A DNA stretch of 64,000 bases from Candidatus Jorgensenbacteria bacterium. GTDB lineage: Bacteria > Patescibacteriota > Minisyncoccia > UBA6257 > GWB1-50-10. Of the stretch, positions 16,413-46,027 are shown one piece after another; position 1 is the first letter of the stretch, and each line of letters opens with the position of its first letter. Under the pieces are notes generated by a model, which was not told the origin of the DNA, searched no databases, and saw nothing but the letters and a program-made list of their open reading frames with translations. The position numbers and the translations under genes were made by a program. The DNA lies in contig JAUSHK010000005.1 in assembly GCA_030648515.1 (NCBI GenBank), positions 48,383 to 112,382 of the forward strand, given 5' to 3'.

Positions 16413-16443
16413 AGATTGAATATGTTATGTATGAAATTAATTG

Positions 16444-16514
16444 CTGCGGGACAGGGATTCGAACCCCGATACCGTGCTCCAGAGGCACGAGTCCTACCAT
16501 TAGACGATCCCGCA
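16444..16514 (-). tRNA. tRNA-Gln(CTG), CCA not encoded
   Basis: TGCGGGA/TCCCGCA acceptor stem, CGTGC-CTCTGGA-GCACG anticodon arm, GTTCGAAT T-loop. Confidence 0.95.
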
Positions 16515-16760
16515 ATGATTCTCAATCTGCCTTATTATCGTTTCTTTTTCAATGCGACAATCCTTGACCTTATGTTCATATTCCCTTGCCTCCTTCTCCA
16601 ATTCAAATTTTCTCGTAAAAACTAGCTCAAAAGGTTTATAAGGTTTTGTCGATTTAACTCTACCACTATTATGCTCACAAAGTCTTTCGTCCAATCTATT
16701 GGTACTTCCTGTGTAATACCATTCTCTTTGTTTACTTTTTATAATATAAACATACCACAT
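16500..16760 (-). CDS. Stand-alone GIY-YIG nuclease (86 aa)
   Basis: MWYVYIIKS...YYTGST...RL.EHN.G...E..A...E; stop codon lies inside tRNA-Gln. Confidence 0.9.
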   Translation of the reverse strand: MWYVYIIKSKQREWYYTGSTNRLDERLCEHNSGRVKSTKPYKPFELVFTRKFELEKEAREYEHKVKDCRIEKETIIRQIENHCGIV

Positions 16761-16768
16761 GTTACAGA

Positions 16769-16808
16769 CTACCATTAGACCTGCCTGCGCAGGCAGGCGA
16801 TCCCGCAA
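16769..16808 (-). pseudogene. Duplicated 5' fragment of tRNA-Gln interrupted by an 18-bp palindrome
   Basis: TTGCGGGATCG[CCTGCCTGCGCAGGCAGG]TCTAATGGTAG; flanks identical to 16494-16515. Confidence 0.85.
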
Positions 16809-27040: not shown

Positions 27041-27174
27041 TTACGTTCCTCCCTTTAATTAAGTAGGTATTAAATTTTGATTATTAATTACTAGTTTAAC
27101 AATAACAAAACCTGCTGTTTTTGTCAAATCCCCTTTAGAAGCGCCCTACTACAAAATAGCAAAGCAACAGTAGC

Positions 27175-29292
27175 CTAGGGGCGACTTACTTCTAACAGGG
27201 CAAGCGTGAGTTTTATTATCGTCCTTCCTTCGGGATTTTTATCTTCGTATGTAAAAACAGTATTTCCTGTTTCTTGCCATACATATCCAAGCGGAGCGGA
27301 AATTGTCGCCTGAAATTCATTTTCCACACCAGACTGCTTTTCAAATATAAACTCAAATATGTTTCCAGGCGCGACCACGGCAGAATCAGACTGCGTGGTT
27401 TGATACCGCAACTCAAGGTCTTTTGACTCGCCCGCCAATACTGTGAACCACGTTGCGAAAACGTTTTTGCCGTCCTCAATCATACTCCAAACTTTATGTT
27501 CCGTGAGATATTTCTCCGTTTCTTCAATCGCAAGAAGATCGGGGTTGTGCTTGTAACCGCCTGTTTCGTAATCAAACGAGCTTACCGAGTTCCGATCTAT
27601 ATTCCCCTTCGCGTTCAAAAGCATCGTCTCGGGATTCGTAAAAATCTTGATGTAATCCTGATTCGGCGATTTCCACCACGAATCGGTTTGCGTATCGCCA
27701 GAGTGCGCGCGGGTTACCGTGAGATTCGTGAGCGCGCTGCCGTCGGTGCCGATATCAATCGCCGCGCGCACTGTTTCTTTTACAAACGCGTCGCTTTTCC
27801 CGCCAGCGATGTTTGTATTCACAACAGCGAGGTAACTTCCCCAGAAACTGCTCGGCAACTCATACACCGCACCGCTTAGTCCAGACGAAGCGATGAAACT
27901 TTGGATTTTATCGTCTTTCGCGTACACCATAATGTCTTTTTTCGCGAAGTGCTCCTCAAAACGCGTGAGAAGCGCCTTTTGTTCCGTTTGCGTGAGCGCG
28001 CCCAGGCGTTCAAAGAGAATTGGCGCGAGAATTTTTAAAATCCGCTTCGGGTGCCCTGCTTTATTATCCTTCCCCGCCTCTACCTCACGCTGGATTTCGT
28101 GCAGAAAGTTTTCGCTATCAATAGTTAGCTTATATTCATCAAGCGGAATGGAGCCTGTAACGTCTAGAAGCGTTTCAAGCACGTTAATGTTAATTGCGAC
28201 AGCCGCGTCAAATTTTATACCGCGTTCCTCATACATTTTTGACGACTCAAGAAAACCAAGAACTGTTTTCGCGGACGTCGGGAAATCAAAGAACCAGTTT
28301 GCGTCGCGCGCTTCCCAATCGGTTGTCGTTTTCTGAAGCGGTTTAGGCGGGATAATTTTTGAGAACACCCAGCCGTCGGGGTCGTAAATATCGCGCACAT
28401 CAAGCGAGACCATCTGCCCGCCACGGACCGTTATATCTGCGTAGCTTCCCAAGAAACCTCCGCCTGGTCGTATCTCCGCCGGATTCTGAAACAAGATAGC
28501 AACGTGCGTATCAGTGTCGCGTTTTAAGAGTGCAAGCAAATTATTTAAAAATTCTTCGGCGCCATAGAGCGCCGCGCTGTGCGCTATGTATTGGTTGCCG
28601 ATAAGGCTGTCAATGCCGTCAAAAAGAGAGGCGGTCTGTTTGAGGCTCGCGGTCGTATTTTTAATATCTTGCGTTTTTGCTAGAATCGCGCTGATTGCGT
28701 CGCGCGCTTCCCCGAGACGCGCAAGAAGCGTTGCTCCGTCGCTTTCAAAATATTTGAAGCCGTTTTGTTTTGCGTCCGCGATGATTTGCGAGATTTTAAG
28801 AAGTTCTATATTTAATCCAGTGATTCCCCCAATGAGAGAACCCGAACTTTTGAAAGCCGGGACGACCCACCCCAATGCGGCTGTGAGCGTTTTTCCGCGC
28901 CCATTTTCCAAGAGCGCATCAAGCGTTGCGAGATCCTTGTTATTTTGGGTAAGGCTTTGCTGCGCGGCTTCCGGGTCAAGATTGCTTAACGCCTCAACTG
29001 ATTTTTGAAAATTACCCGATATAGCGGAGCTTGAATTTTTAATTACGTCGCGCGTTTGAACGGCTGTCTTCGCGACAAAAACAAAAAGAATTCCGACCAT
29101 AATAAAGGAGAACGCGCCGATGATTTTTGCCACAGCACCGCTCGTGTTGCGCTTTGGCGCCTGCGGGATGCGGGCAAGGTCAAGCGACGGCGTGCGCATA
29201 ATGCGCTCATAGTTAAGGTCGGGATGCCGCACGTCAAAAAGAACCGGGTCAATGTTTTTCGCGGAAACTTTTCTCTTTATCGGGTGTTCCAT
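27175..29292 (-). CDS. DUF4012 domain protein
   Basis: TM then FQNPAEIRPGGGF, RDANWFFDFP, GGKSD motifs. Confidence 0.85.
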   Translation of the reverse strand: MEHPIKRKVSAKNIDPVLFDVRHPDLNYERIMRTPSLDLARIPQAPKRNTSGAVAKIIGAFSFIMVGILFVFVAKTAVQTRDVIKNSSSAISGNFQKSVEALSNLDPEAAQQSLTQNNKDLATLDALLENGRGKTLTAALGWVVPAFKSSGSLIGGITGLNIELLKISQIIADAKQNGFKYFESDGATLLARLGEARDAISAILAKTQDIKNTTASLKQTASLFDGIDSLIGNQYIAHSAALYGAEEFLNNLLALLKRDTDTHVAILFQNPAEIRPGGGFLGSYADITVRGGQMVSLDVRDIYDPDGWVFSKIIPPKPLQKTTTDWEARDANWFFDFPTSAKTVLGFLESSKMYEERGIKFDAAVAININVLETLLDVTGSIPLDEYKLTIDSENFLHEIQREVEAGKDNKAGHPKRILKILAPILFERLGALTQTEQKALLTRFEEHFAKKDIMVYAKDDKIQSFIASSGLSGAVYELPSSFWGSYLAVVNTNIAGGKSDAFVKETVRAAIDIGTDGSALTNLTVTRAHSGDTQTDSWWKSPNQDYIKIFTNPETMLLNAKGNIDRNSVSSFDYETGGYKHNPDLLAIEETEKYLTEHKVWSMIEDGKNVFATWFTVLAGESKDLELRYQTTQSDSAVVAPGNIFEFIFEKQSGVENEFQATISAPLGYVWQETGNTVFTYEDKNPEGRTIIKLTLALLEVSRP

Positions 29293-34286: not shown

Positions 34287-34353
34287 CCCCGATTAGAAAT
34301 ACCCGCCCCGGGGCAGCTCCGCTGTTTTTATAGAAAGGCGATTTCTAACGGGG
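34287..34353. mobile_element. MITE-like element (short copy)
   Basis: Ends CCCCGATTAGAAAT ... ATTTCTAACGGGG; abuts -35 of rplS promoter (TTGACG-17-TAAACT). Confidence 0.6.
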
Positions 34354-41887: not shown

Positions 41888-42103
41888 CTAGCCTCCTAAA
41901 TTTAACTTTTCAAACCCCTTAATGTCAAACTGCTTTGTTGGCGGCGGAGGCGTCGTCACGTTTAATACGCCACTCAGGTTTGAAACGAGGAATGTAAGAA
42001 GATAGGCGCATATCCCGATTGTAATGAGCCCAAGAAGAACGGCTCCCGTGAGAAATATTGCCTGATGATCAAGTTTTGCGTTCCATTTTTTAAGTTTCTC
42101 CAT
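41888..42103 (-). CDS. Small single-TM protein
   Basis: 71 aa; ATG contributed by the end of the adjacent MITE. Confidence 0.65.
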   Translation of the reverse strand: MEKLKKWNAKLDHQAIFLTGAVLLGLITIGICAYLLTFLVSNLSGVLNVTTPPPPTKQFDIKGFEKLNLGG

Positions 42104-42215
42104 CCCATTAGAGACAGGAAGCGCTTTGCGCGATTCCTGGCATAGTATTATTTCCCATAACCTTTTCTTTTATTGTACATGATGTTGGCATAGAACATTA
42201 TCGTCTCTAACGGGA
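42103..42215 (-). mobile_element. MITE-like element
   Basis: TIR TCCCGTTAGAGAC ... GTCTCTAATGGGA; interior aligns with 43667-43854. Confidence 0.75.
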
Positions 42216-42224
42216 CAAGTACCA

Positions 42225-42749
42225 TTATTTTTGAAAAAAGATTTTCCCGCGGATTGAAACGTTATTCCCCCCGTCTTTCGTGCGGCCGACAGCAAAACTT
42301 TCAAGCCGCGTGAGATACCGGAATTGCTCCAAGCTTTTTACAAATATTTCAATGCCTTGAATATCCCCGTCGGCCTGAAGGCGAAAACTCACGGCCCCTA
42401 AGCCACTTCCACTAACGGAGTTTTCTCCGGTAAAAGCGAACGTATGATTAACGCCGGCTTGTGTCGCTAGAACCTGAAAATCGCGCGAGATATTAAAGAG
42501 ATCCGCCTCGCGCGGTATCGCGCCGTTTATCATAAGCGAGTAATCCTTCGCTTTTTTATATTGCGACTCCAAACTAGCAAGCTCTCCTAGAGACGCGCTC
42601 CGCGACGCAAGCTCGCTTCTGGCAGTAATGAGATCCCTGCCGTTCGTTCCGATACTGCTTGCAAAAACCGCGATTCCAATTGCCAGTAAAATTATTGCGA
42701 CTCCCGCAATTGAAACCTGTATAGTGAGCTTTTTTTGAAAGGCCGTCAT
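42225..42749 (-). CDS. PilO-like type IV pilus assembly protein
   Basis: TM, coiled coil, ferredoxin-like tail (G....I..F...LE...Y). Confidence 0.6.
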   Translation of the reverse strand: MTAFQKKLTIQVSIAGVAIILLAIGIAVFASSIGTNGRDLITARSELASRSASLGELASLESQYKKAKDYSLMINGAIPREADLFNISRDFQVLATQAGVNHTFAFTGENSVSGSGLGAVSFRLQADGDIQGIEIFVKSLEQFRYLTRLESFAVGRTKDGGNNVSIRGKIFFQK

Positions 42750-42802
42750 GAGACAAGTGTATAATGAATTGAAATCGCTTCATTCCATTTTACCACATTA
42801 GA

Positions 42803-43666
42803 GTGACGCAAAACATTTTTTCAATAACAGCGAACGACGCATTATATCCTCCGCTTCTCCGCGAAATTCCGGGCGCTCCGCAGAAGTTGTATTATCGCGG
42901 TGAAATACCCCGCGCGTGGACGCACACCGTTGCGATTGTCGGCACGCGCAAAGCGACGCGCGATGGCATTCTAACCGCACGTGAGATTGCGCGCGATCTT
43001 GCTTCCCGCGGCGTTCTCATTATAAGCGGCCTCGCGCTAGGAATTGATGCCGCGGCGCACGAAGGGGCGCTTGCGGGCGGAGGGAAGACGTATGCGGTCC
43101 TCGCGAACGGACTTGATACCATTTATCCGCCAAGCCACGAGTCGCTCGCAAGACAAATTCTTGAAACCGGCGGATGCATCTTTTCCGAATATCCAGAAGG
43201 AACGCCGAGCTATCCAAGCCAGTTTCTTGAGCGCAACCGCATTGTAAGCGGTTTATCGCTCGCAACCGTGGTTATTGAGGCGCCTGAGCGTTCTGGGGCG
43301 CTTGTAACCGCACGCAACGCGATTGAACAGGGGCGTGACGTGTTTATCATCCCCGGGCCGGTTCATCACAGCAACTACCGTGGGTCGCATTTTTTGGTCC
43401 GCGAGGGCGCGCGGCTTGTTACGTCCGCCGAAGATATTATTCGCGATTTAGGCATTGAAGCGCAAAAGAAATTGCCAGAGTTCTCTAGCGAGCAAGTTAA
43501 AGTTTTTTCCGTAATAAAAGAACAAAAAGTACCGCTTGACGTTGACAGAATCGCAGAATTGGTTACACTAGAACCTCACGTTGTGCAAAGCGCACTTACT
43601 TTTCTCTCTCTTGAGGGTTATATTGAAGAAGCGAGCGGAAAGTTTTGTATAACAAAAACATTATGA
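42803..43666 (+). CDS. dprA: DNA-processing protein DprA
   Basis: YP.LL.EI, IVGTR, SGLALGID, FLERNRIVSGL, SGAL.TA. Confidence 0.95.
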   Translation: MTQNIFSITANDALYPPLLREIPGAPQKLYYRGEIPRAWTHTVAIVGTRKATRDGILTAREIARDLASRGVLIISGLALGIDAAAHEGALAGGGKTYAVLANGLDTIYPPSHESLARQILETGGCIFSEYPEGTPSYPSQFLERNRIVSGLSLATVVIEAPERSGALVTARNAIEQGRDVFIIPGPVHHSNYRGSHFLVREGARLVTSAEDIIRDLGIEAQKKLPEFSSEQVKVFSVIKEQKVPLDVDRIAELVTLEPHVVQSALTFLSLEGYIEEASGKFCITKTL

Positions 43667-43854
43667 ATCCCGTTAGAGAAGATACTGTGCTATATCTATG
43701 CCTTATACAATAACCAAGACCAAAAATAACATACTCATCATGCTCAGCATATACGGAAGCGCCTTTCTAAACGCGATTGATATTTTTATTGCGAAAGGTT
43801 CGAACAAGTACCATATCAGGAATCGCGTAAGGCGCTTCCTTTCTCTAACGGGAT
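43667..43854 (+). mobile_element. MITE-like element (188 bp)
   Basis: Perfect 14-bp TIR ATCCCGTTAGAGAA / TTCTCTAACGGGAT; right end contains the first bases of the topA ATG. Confidence 0.8.
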
Positions 43855-46027
43855 GAAACTCGTCATTGTAGAATCACCTACAAAAGCGAAAACCATTTCG
43901 CATTATTTGGATTCATCATTCAAAGTGATGGCGAGCGTAGGACATATTCGCGACTTGCCGAAAAAAAACAGCGGCGCAATTGATATCGCGCATGGCTTTG
44001 TTCCGCACTACGAAGTCGTAAAAGGGAAGGAAAAAATTGTCGCTGAAATCAAACAGCTTTCAAAGAAAGCGAGCGAAGTATATCTCACAACCGACCCTGA
44101 CCGCGAAGGCGAAGCAATAGCGTGGCACATCAAAGAAGCGTGCGGACTTAAAGATCCAAAACGCGCCGTCGTGCACGAAATCACAAAAGAGGCCGTTATG
44201 GAGGCGCTCGCGCACCCGAGGCACATAGACGAGGATTTACGGAAGGCACAGGAGGCGCGACGCGTGCTGGATAGATTATTTGGTTATGACTTAAGCGGTC
44301 TTATTTGGAAAAAAGTTCGTTACGGGCTTTCCGCCGGCCGCGTGCAATCTCCCGCGCTTCGGATTCTCATGGAGCGCGAGCGCGAGATCCGCGCTTTTGT
44401 GCCGGAAGATTTTTGGGTTATCACCGGCGAATTCAACACCGAGAAAAATTCAACGATTACACTTGTCTGCGATGAAACTCCCGCGAAGGAAACTGAGGCG
44501 GAACGGATTATCGCTGCTGCGAAGAAAAATCCGTGGCATGTCATTGAAGTAAAACAGACGGAAGCAAAACGCTCTCCGCGTCCCCCGTTTATTACATCAA
44601 CCTTACAACAGGCGGCGAGCTCCGAGCTTGGGTTCGCGCCGTCGCGGACGATGCGCATCGCCCAGCATCTTTTTGAAAACGGGTTGATAACCTATATGCG
44701 CACTGACAGCACGAACTTAAGCGCCGCGGCTCTTGCGGAAATTTACGGAGAAATTGAAAAGACGTACGGCAAACAGTATCTCTCGCCACGCGCGTATCAT
44801 ACGAAAAGCAAAACCGCGCAGGAAGCGCATGAAGCGATACGGCCAACAAGCGCGCGGAAGCGTCACGCTGGCAGCGGCGAAGCAGAACGGCTTTACAACA
44901 TGATCTTGGAGCGAACTGTCGCTTCGCAGATGGCTGATGCTAAAACTCTGCGTACAAAAATCTCCGCGAACATTATAGGCAAGGGTGATGCTATTCCAAA
45001 TTTTTCAGTAAACGGAAGCGTGATTGTTTTTCCCGGGTGGTTTGCCGCGGATCCCGGCGCTCGCGGGGAAGAAACTGAGTTGCCGAAGATTATGGAGAAC
45101 GATCCGCTTACGCTCAAAAATATAGCGAGCGAGGGAAAACAGACGGAACCGCCTGGTAGGTACACGGAGGCGGGGCTTATCAAGGAACTTGAGAAACGCG
45201 AGATCGGGCGGCCGAGCACGTACGCGTCCATAATTCAAACGCTTTTGACGCGCGCGTACGTTCTAAAAAATGGCAGAGCACTCCAGCCGACCGACGTCGG
45301 CGAGGTGGTTAGCACGTTTCTTGAAAAGAATTTTGAAAAATACATAAGCGACTCATTTACAGCTGATATGGAAAACAAGCTGGACCTTATCGCTGACGGC
45401 AAGGAAAATTATGTGACAACGCTTAAAAACTTCTACACGCCGTTTTCAAAAGACGTTGCCGCGAAGGCAAAAATAGAAAAGCTTACCACGCTCGGCGAAG
45501 CGGACAAGAAATTCAAATGTCCAGTCTGCGGTTCATCGATGGATATAAAACTCGGGCGGAGCGGAAAATTCCTGAGCTGCAGCCGGTTCCCAAAGTGCAA
45601 GGGCTCGCTAAAAATTGACGGGGCTCCGTTTGAAGAACCGAAAGAAACCGGCGAGATGTGCCCTGAGTGTAAAACCGGAAAACTCGTTGAGCGCGAAGGC
45701 AAGTTCGGAAAATTCATCGCGTGCAACAATTATCCGAAATGCAAATATATTAAAGAAGATCCGGCGGAGGTTGCAAAACGGAAAACCGGCGTCACGTGCC
45801 CGCTTTGTAAGGAAGGCGAGATTACCGAGCGCCGCGGACGATTCGGCTTTTTCTACAGCTGTTCAAATTATCCGAAATGCAAATTCGCTATGAAGGCGCG
45901 CCCGACAGGCAATATCTGTAAACTATGCGATTCTCTTATGATGGAAGGGACAAAAACAATTCCCGAACGTTGTTCTAATAAAGATTGTCCGAACCATAAT
46001 CCTCTTAAAGCCGCAAAGAGGAAATAA
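43853..46027 (+). CDS. topA: DNA topoisomerase I
   Basis: IVESPTK, DPDREGE, SAGRVQS, ITYMRTD, C4 zinc ribbons. Confidence 0.97.
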   Translation: MKLVIVESPTKAKTISHYLDSSFKVMASVGHIRDLPKKNSGAIDIAHGFVPHYEVVKGKEKIVAEIKQLSKKASEVYLTTDPDREGEAIAWHIKEACGLKDPKRAVVHEITKEAVMEALAHPRHIDEDLRKAQEARRVLDRLFGYDLSGLIWKKVRYGLSAGRVQSPALRILMEREREIRAFVPEDFWVITGEFNTEKNSTITLVCDETPAKETEAERIIAAAKKNPWHVIEVKQTEAKRSPRPPFITSTLQQAASSELGFAPSRTMRIAQHLFENGLITYMRTDSTNLSAAALAEIYGEIEKTYGKQYLSPRAYHTKSKTAQEAHEAIRPTSARKRHAGSGEAERLYNMILERTVASQMADAKTLRTKISANIIGKGDAIPNFSVNGSVIVFPGWFAADPGARGEETELPKIMENDPLTLKNIASEGKQTEPPGRYTEAGLIKELEKREIGRPSTYASIIQTLLTRAYVLKNGRALQPTDVGEVVSTFLEKNFEKYISDSFTADMENKLDLIADGKENYVTTLKNFYTPFSKDVAAKAKIEKLTTLGEADKKFKCPVCGSSMDIKLGRSGKFLSCSRFPKCKGSLKIDGAPFEEPKETGEMCPECKTGKLVEREGKFGKFIACNNYPKCKYIKEDPAEVAKRKTGVTCPLCKEGEITERRGRFGFFYSCSNYPKCKFAMKARPTGNICKLCDSLMMEGTKTIPERCSNKDCPNHNPLKAAKRK

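Follow-up and report, generated by a model that had tools for sequence, protein, structure and literature searches.

What has placed two similar repeats immediately before the starts of two genes? The question is raised by a stretch of 64,000 nucleotides from a Candidatus Jorgensenbacteria bacterium (assembly GCA_030648515.1, contig JAUSHK010000005.1, positions 48,383 to 112,382), hereafter the window; the genome that holds it (G000) measures 691 kb in five contigs. A preliminary description of the window had recognised in the repeats a family of MITEs (miniature transposable elements with inverted repeats) that insert just after coupled start codons and supply a replacement ATG. The answer that we favour, and consider fairly probable, is that the repeats are deleted copies of a nuclease element of 267-297 bp that inserts at start codons and rebuilds the ATG, with the nuclease as its mobiliser and a ribosome relay that keeps the host gene translated.

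Both repeats were confirmed in the window sequence, at 42103-42215 (element 1, minus strand) and 43668-43853 (element 2, plus strand), and they are homologous as described, with right ends 81% alike over 54 nt (blastn E 6e-8). The core of element 2, from CCC to GGG, lies at 43669-43852 (184 bp) and is enclosed by the element's own outer T/A pair; the arms form a perfect 14-bp inverted repeat (43667-43680 and 43841-43854). The core of element 1 occupies 42104-42214 (111 bp), its full span including the outermost T/A pair, and one mismatch in its right arm leaves an inverted repeat that pairs at 12 of 13 positions. Element 2, which contains no gene, had been reported as the longer internally, and its core exceeds that of element 1 by 73 nt. 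Each begins just after an ATG overlapping an upstream stop, again as reported: the TGA of dprA overlaps the ATG at 43663-43665, five bases before the CCC of element 2, and the TAA of a PilO-like gene overlaps the ATG at 42225-42223 (TAATG), 11 nt before the CCC of element 1. Both right ends read GGG-ATG, into topA (43853) and into a gene of 71 codons (42103), and in both cases the final A of the element is the A of the downstream ATG, so that the replacement start codon is indeed supplied by the element. Element 2 is bracketed on the plus strand by a TGAA target duplication, assigned from the sequence and from the duplication test of the whole family given below; its left copy (43664-43667) contains the dprA stop, and its right copy (43854-43857) provides the TG of the topA ATG and a TGA that is the stop of a relay frame. 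These repeats are not a product of chance, since the paired-end pattern is present in 16 of 41 related genomes (reversed control, 0) and the RNA folds of the two elements have z scores of -6.0 and -3.9.

The earlier view of a non-autonomous mobile family is supported by further copies, by empty alleles and by a long partner. A third close copy lies at G000:C1:89337-89528 (the C1 copy), shares 72% identity with element 2 and has ATGAAT on both sides. A relaxed census of G000 gave 12 distinct end-pairs, namely elements 1 and 2, the C1 copy, one T/A-ended member of 52 bp and eight C/G-ended members of 64-79 bp, some of them degenerate. Two degenerate, gene-less short C/G-ended members with the same ends lie in the window itself (27131-27199 and 34289-34352). 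The 52-bp member (G000:C3:17030-17081) has a TGAG duplication and sits in the last codons of a gene, which gains a new stop from it, and the ATG of the member opens a frame of just 6 codons. Elements nested in elements, and members into which an 18-bp palindrome has inserted, as at the tRNA-Gln locus of the window described below, were seen among L048, L049 and L054 (G001) and L062 and L066 (G020).

Relatives show both junctions without the repeats. No such element stands upstream of topA in 28 of 29 relatives, and at L027, from another family, a member with an unrelated interior occupies exactly the same topA ATG. The preliminary description had expected empty junctions to be direct ATGA overlaps; of 27 scorable empty dprA-topA junctions, 18 place the stop no more than 10 nt from the start, with an exact ATGA overlap in 5 and a TAATG overlap in 3, a count that omits one locus without dprA and two filled loci. 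The corresponding spacing in G000 is 186 nt. At the PilO-like junction the motif was absent from all 19 relatives' loci (one could not be placed), and a long frame begins 2-13 nt from the stop in 13 of the 19. Among the matches listed, which were contigs only, none had a joint that precisely skipped element 2, as strain-level excision would produce; such excision may occur all the same. The dprA-topA spacer of L016 (G018) differs in kind: it is 221 nt long, lacks the motif, and carries a duplicate of the first ~34 nt of topA followed by a different insert, rich in palindromes, which is an element of another type at this start codon.

A long partner with an open reading frame had been anticipated, and one exists, but it encodes a GIY-YIG nuclease and not a known transposase. 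This parent is a Patescibacteria inverted-repeat element of 267-297 bp with the same ends, and its sole gene encodes a nuclease of about 86 residues. End-pairs of 275-278 bp from G014 and G020 enclose an 87-residue GIY-YIG frame (PF01541) whose last codons (KRFLSLTG) form the right end of the element; the flanking ATGA supplies its TGA stop. When 251 genomes of the class were searched by ends, 26 had pairs of 267-297 bp (control, 0), as did no fewer than 121 metagenomic loci, and 127 of 147 distinct end-pairs of this length hold a GIY-YIG gene. Searching by protein gave the same association, with the ends present at all 20 of the best of 30 fetched homologue loci, one having a 1-nt insertion in the ends and one (L252) a compensated variant at both ends. 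More distant homologues of the nuclease are flanked by different inverted ends or by direct repeats of the 5' end of a tRNA. In G020 two full-length copies, one base apart, stand at unrelated sites.

The nuclease frame is intact in 117 of 123 full-length copies with distinct flanks. Mean amino acid identity among copies is 63%, and two Tyr together with Gly, Arg, His and Glu, which we take to be the GIY-YIG active-site residues, are kept at 99-100%. With a median dN/dS of 0.20 (85 least saturated pairs, pS 0.05-0.5), the nuclease is evidently under purifying selection, and it looks functional by these signs of conservation. Its structural model is confident (predicted local distance difference test 92), and its best match is 1zg2 (E 7e-12 by sequence, 6e-5 by fold), followed by HIGLE (7wme) and Slx1. 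At least 1844 related proteins exist, and the closest named homologues come from Patescibacteria. The exact 12-base end motif occurs in 76 of 121 genomes of the class; a single genome holds as many as 72 ends, where controls give 0-4 matches. Scanning across GTDB for an inner motif specific to a subfamily returned 3 matches, two of them in other phyla; viral contigs gave 0 matches to the full-length and short ATG patterns, and plasmids gave only 3 distant homologues. Some full-length elements have a G/C outer pair (L079/L265 of G172, L192 and L083). L265 abuts a tRNA-Pro gene, where its GGGC end appears to rebuild the first bases of the tRNA in parallel to the rebuilding of ATG, and L192 and L083 resemble it by eye.

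The window copies retain traces of this parent. With its ends removed, the interior of element 2 aligns colinearly to a profile of the parent interior (252 positions) at 9-95 and 225-252 (E 9e-5 and 2e-3), and the interior of element 1 has a weak match to the 3' end of the parent gene (E 0.02). To judge from these alignments, element 2 is an internally deleted, gene-less derivative of the GIY-YIG element and element 1 a more deleted, older one. Three short C/G-ended copies of G000 do not match the profile. Element 2 also contains an internal inverted match between 43761-43788 and its own sub-terminal right end (43822-43840), giving a second long stem whose halves go back to the parent-gene codons for RKR and KRF.

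The full-length copies define how the element inserts. The base just outside CCC/GGG is complementary between the two ends in 121 of 123 copies even though it may be T/A, C/G or G/C, and therefore belongs to the element. Outside this pair a 4-bp direct repeat occurs in 54 of the 123 (permutation mean 21.8, maximum 30). Exact repeats number 120 among 248 elements of all sizes; 63 are TGAA or its complement, and nearly all fit Y-N-N-R. Two other lengths were considered and rejected: a 6-bp duplication (offset 0) is seen in 7 of 123 copies against 3.7 expected, and a 2-bp duplication (offset 2) in 62 against 35.8, but TGAG and TGGA cases need 4, and the best fit is a 4-bp duplication lying outside one base that belongs to the element. 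On entering A|TGAA, an A-ended element would leave the old ATG on its left and form a new ATG with its own last base. In agreement, ATG stands at the right junction in 61 of 65 A-ended full-length copies, and the new ATG opens at least 80 codons in 50 of 54 scorable copies versus 172 of 858 control ATGA sites. Orientation is biased as well, with ATG at the 3' end of the nuclease gene in 61 copies versus 2 at the other end. Gene-less T/A-ended copies, retrieved without ATG in the search pattern, read ATG in 25 of 30 cases. The proposed preference for coupled starts was not borne out as a rule: 25 of 87 start-codon copies lie at coupled starts versus a crude baseline of 86 of 652 genes, a mild excess of about two-fold at most, and the C1 copy does not lie at one.

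It had further been suggested that the insertions uncouple translation, which is probably not so; a relay of ribosomes is likely instead. In element 2, a frame of 16 codons (43663-43713, plus strand) starts at the original ATG, still present and overlapping the stop of dprA, and a relay frame of 52 codons (43698-43856, plus strand), without a match to any NCBIfam family, ends in RRFLSLTG-stop like the parent nuclease, its TGA overlapping the topA ATG (ATGA). In element 1, a frame of 25 codons (42148-42225, minus strand) runs from the ATG overlapping the PilO-like stop (TAATG), and a relay frame of 16 codons (42108-42158, minus strand) starts 8 nt before its stop and ends 4 nt before the new ATG. 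With a relay defined as a chain of no more than three frames, the start of each lying -14 to +13 nt from the previous stop, 31 of 41 gene-less copies, both window copies included, have such a chain leading to the new ATG, against 8.6 expected from shuffled interiors with the ends kept; one-step chains number 18 against 4.0. Some open frames of the gene-less copies may be inherited from the parent gene. Where a full-length copy has both ATGs, the old one shares its frame with the nuclease in 28 of 39 cases and reads without a stop as far as the ATGA in 23 of 39. The arrangement of these short frames suggests that they likely pass ribosomes to the host gene. Both new AUGs are buried in the folds, which give no support to the idea that the left arm alone gates the topA AUG.

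Which enzyme moves the family? The preliminary description had seen no transposase in the window, consistent with our search of the whole of G000 for DDE_Tnp_1, rve, Y1_Tnp and IS1595, four families of which none was found; G000 encodes one tyrosine recombinase, which is not adjacent to these ends. Eight transposase loci from the element-rich genomes G020, G014 and G118 are not bounded by these ends, and no facing end-pair 300-3000 bp apart was seen among 282 end positions (132, plus 150 of the 855 in a second list), paired by eye. Because none of this revealed a known transposase bounded by these ends, the nuclease is likely to be what mobilises the family, probably both the parent and its miniatures. 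Positions 10 and 12 of the inner ends are complementary in 239 and 227 of 248 elements although they vary, and this co-variation, together with the doubly changed variant L252, suggests that the two ends pair in single-stranded DNA. We propose that the element would be handled as a single strand with its ends paired; the nuclease would nick at the foot of the paired-end stem and make nicks staggered by 4 nt in a Y-N-N-R target, and the joint would be completed by polymerase and ligase of the host. The parent would borrow the original ATG of the host for translation of its nuclease and return the ribosome to the host gene through the ATGA stop-start overlap. Miniatures would retain this hand-over, and if so dprA and topA, and likewise pilO and the next gene, should stay coupled. 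In its boldest form, to which we would give an even chance, the proposal amounts to a new class of insertion sequence, about 275 bp long, whose transposase would be a GIY-YIG nuclease of 86 residues that would act on a folded single strand, pick start codons, be translated from the host ATG and give the ribosome back by stop-start overlap, its miniatures keeping the relay. Genomes of the Candidate Phyla Radiation (CPR) would then tolerate dozens of miniatures before essential genes such as topA because the relay is kept.

Several observations weigh against this account. An exact 4-bp duplication is absent from 69 of the 123 full-length copies, and element 1 has no clean one (CTTG left, TGGA right). 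The C1 copy fails the relay test; the relay count takes no account of kinship among copies, of which G020 alone supplies 8 of the 31, and the distances that it allows were set once the sequences had been inspected. In one low-depth contig of a related strain element 2 has a net +2 indel, with which the 52-codon frame is probably not kept there. When the left arm is blocked in folding, the AUG of element 1 is freed and that of element 2 re-pairs and stays closed. GIY-YIG domains cut, and none is known to perform strand transfer. Both elements stand in place in contigs of related strains that are about 90-95% identical, so the window copies are old, and G000 holds no full-length copy, so its copies are relics. 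Finally, G020, G014 and G118 encode rve-type or Y1 transposases (rve-type in G020 and G014), and a long transposase-bearing partner may lie among the 705 of the 855 ends that were not listed.

These last points bear on the idea that the family consists of ordinary MITEs and cassettes that owe their movement to an unseen DDE transposase acting in trans, with the GIY-YIG protein as cargo or as a helper that damages empty sites. Inverted ends with a short, fixed duplication are the usual signature of DDE enzymes, the interiors of short members are mutually unrelated, and G020 and G014 have rve-type transposase genes. We nevertheless regard this as unlikely, given the lack of a long end-pair among the 282 listed ends and of these ends at the fetched transposase loci, the conservation of the nuclease across 123 unrelated sites with its last codons forming the right end, and a strict end co-variation that fits pairing better than separate binding by protein. 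A different objection touches only the choice of target and leaves room for the nuclease as mobiliser: insertion may be blind to start codons and use any TGAA-like site, the survivors being copies that rebuilt an ATG. The right flank must supply the stop of the nuclease, and TG or TA stands at +2/+3 in most copies; G000 is 87% coding by a crude call; the 52-bp member at G000:C3:17030 lies away from a start; and C/G-ended members often do too, reading GTG in 20 of 52 and opening a long frame in 9 of 18. Purging of coding insertions alone, however, predicts about 41% of surviving sites at starts (333 of 806 ATGRR sites in G000, by crude gene calls; 13% for 4-mers), against the 50 of 54 seen, and since both ends finish in A, survival would allow either orientation where 61 versus 2 was counted. 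Wholly blind insertion is therefore possible but doubtful; some genuine preference for start codons likely exists, to which survival, gene calls being crude, surely adds.

The copies at dprA-topA and behind the PilO-like gene might instead be domesticated cis-regulators whose hairpins hide the AUG until an upstream ribosome opens them. Stable folds bury the new AUG, relay frames are present, related strains have kept the elements, and Shine-Dalgarno-like motifs are few in G000 (88 of 658 crude genes). Against such a role, 28 of 29 relatives have no element at topA and the 19 relatives examined have none behind the PilO-like gene, the interiors drift between strains, and no functional theme was noticed among the target genes, though none was sought; we find this reading quite improbable.

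The parent protein finds its best sequence and fold matches among structure-specific nucleases of the UPF0213/YazA and Slx1/HIGLE groups. These are repair-type enzymes that are not known to be borne by elements, and the yazA gene that we fetched lies between trmNF and rsmI without any mobile annotation, unlike the parent gene. Handling of single-stranded hairpins by a very small enzyme, with many gene-less derivatives, is known from IS200/IS605 and REP/RAYT and is likely common to the parent element. IS200/IS605 elements, however, use HUH tyrosine chemistry and are not known to have terminal inverted repeats or target duplication, unlike the parent, and no Y1 transposase was found in G000. The parent is not a DDE insertion sequence by content, as it holds one GIY-YIG frame of 86-87 residues and no DDE gene. 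A homing endonuclease or group I intron was rejected (123 distinct flank pairs; TIGR01453 score of 20 bits against a cut-off of 56). An integron cassette was rejected as well: attC sites have the motif order RYYYAAC...GTTRRRY and accompany an integron integrase, whereas the order is reversed here and no integrase is linked to the ends.

The window elements have the structure of MITEs. Their cores of 111 and 184 bp lie within 50-500 bp and hold remnants of the parent gene only, with no intact transposase gene; they have terminal inverted repeats; TGAA flanks both element 2 and the C1 copy; and copies are dispersed, with empty orthologous sites. The Correia elements of Neisseria are comparable short, non-coding elements with inverted ends. 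In what is accessible of a review of bacterial MITEs (PMC10969869), Type I members are likewise short and non-coding, with inverted ends and target duplication, derived from a parent by deletion and forming hairpins beside genes. Our family differs from them in a parent without a recognised transposase, in insertion inside start codons with a rebuilt ATG, and in relay frames; the terms 'start codon' and 'nuclease' have 0 matches in that review.

The closest published parallel is offered by the Ssn nucleases and their NTS/SRM hairpin repeats, for which Chenal et al. (2025, PMC11893778) liken the arrangement NTS-ssnA-NTS to an insertion sequence and propose a domesticated mobile element. In both systems, as far as the available part of that report goes, a single-domain GIY-YIG gene of about 90 residues lies between repeats and the genome holds many gene-less repeats (PMC11893778); the parent protein has 87 residues and PF01541 as its domain. 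Unlike members of the Ssn group, the parent proteins fall outside the cd10448/Ssn clade, taking profile score and tree as proxies: three NTS-associated proteins score 23-34 bits on the parent profile, below YazA at 52, and the three group on a branch of their own (100/99), separate from the element proteins, in a tree with long branches built on 89 columns. SRMs are local hairpins of 20-50 nt, whereas here one inverted pair of 13-14 bp closes the whole element (PMC11893778, in part). Hairpins of that kind do not flank our element; an NTS-like match (at most 4 mismatches) occurred at 2 of the loci L073-L259, both at the same place ~350 bp outside the element. The accessible text of PMC11893778 mentions neither target duplication nor start-codon targeting, its main text has 0 matches to 'CPR' and 'Candidatus', and 12 of its 14 supplements have 0 matches to Parcubacteria, Patescibacteria, Paceibacter and Saccharibacteria. 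The parent nuclease may thus work like Ssn but is not a member, since it belongs to another clade and lacks SRM hairpins. In CPR rRNA genes, sporadic small GIY-YIG insertions that are not introns have been judged by their authors to lie outside homing (PMC11270868, available portion). Unlike our family, these are confined to rRNA genes, with no ends, duplication or miniatures described in that portion and 0 matches to 'inverted repeat' in the paper (PMC11270868). In the open literature, that is, outside ISfinder and subscription journals, we found no published description of this element family and none of a transposase class based on a lone GIY-YIG domain.

The host genes at both sites are recognisable. 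On the plus strand, dprA (42803-43666; TIGR00732 above cut-off) precedes element 2, which rebuilds the start of topA (43853-46027), presumably TopA from its sequence and with homologues in 39 of 41 genomes. The topA match of L026 (G030) contains two in-frame TGA stops and may be a broken gene or come from a recoded contig. On the minus strand, the PilO-like gene (42225-42749), a name taken from the preliminary description and without an NCBIfam match, precedes element 1, which rebuilds the start of a conserved small gene of 71 residues (41888-42103) whose homologue in relatives lies directly behind the PilO-like gene. Elsewhere in the window, a gene for an 86-residue GIY-YIG protein of another clade (16503-16760, minus strand), missed in the preliminary description, stands before tRNA-Gln (16443-16514, minus strand). 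It is bracketed by a direct repeat of the first ~21 nt of the tRNA, the upstream copy (~16769-16808) being split by an 18-bp palindrome, and the locus looks like a second nuclease-only element, one that duplicates the 5' end of a tRNA. Similarly, at G000:C3:41700-42000 (L071) a small GIY-YIG gene lies before a tRNA that appears by eye to be of Leu type, with a direct repeat of ~37 nt of the tRNA 5' end whose upstream copy is interrupted by several small palindromes; L268 and L269, from other genomes, have the same architecture.

Together, the shared ends, colinear gene remnants, empty sites, 4-bp duplication with insertion between A and TG, bias in start codon and orientation, and intact, conserved nuclease demonstrate at the level of sequence that the repeats of the window are relics of a nuclease-only element that rebuilds start codons. 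The family is common (76 of 121 genomes), so start-codon calls in CPR annotation can shift. Should the nuclease be the mobiliser, the element would rank with the smallest self-mobilising DNA elements and would offer a direct test of the published guess that small, repeat-flanked GIY-YIG genes such as ssn are mobile. The family also illustrates how selfish DNA may persist in very compact genomes without splicing: by inserting in a start codon, rebuilding it and relaying the ribosome.

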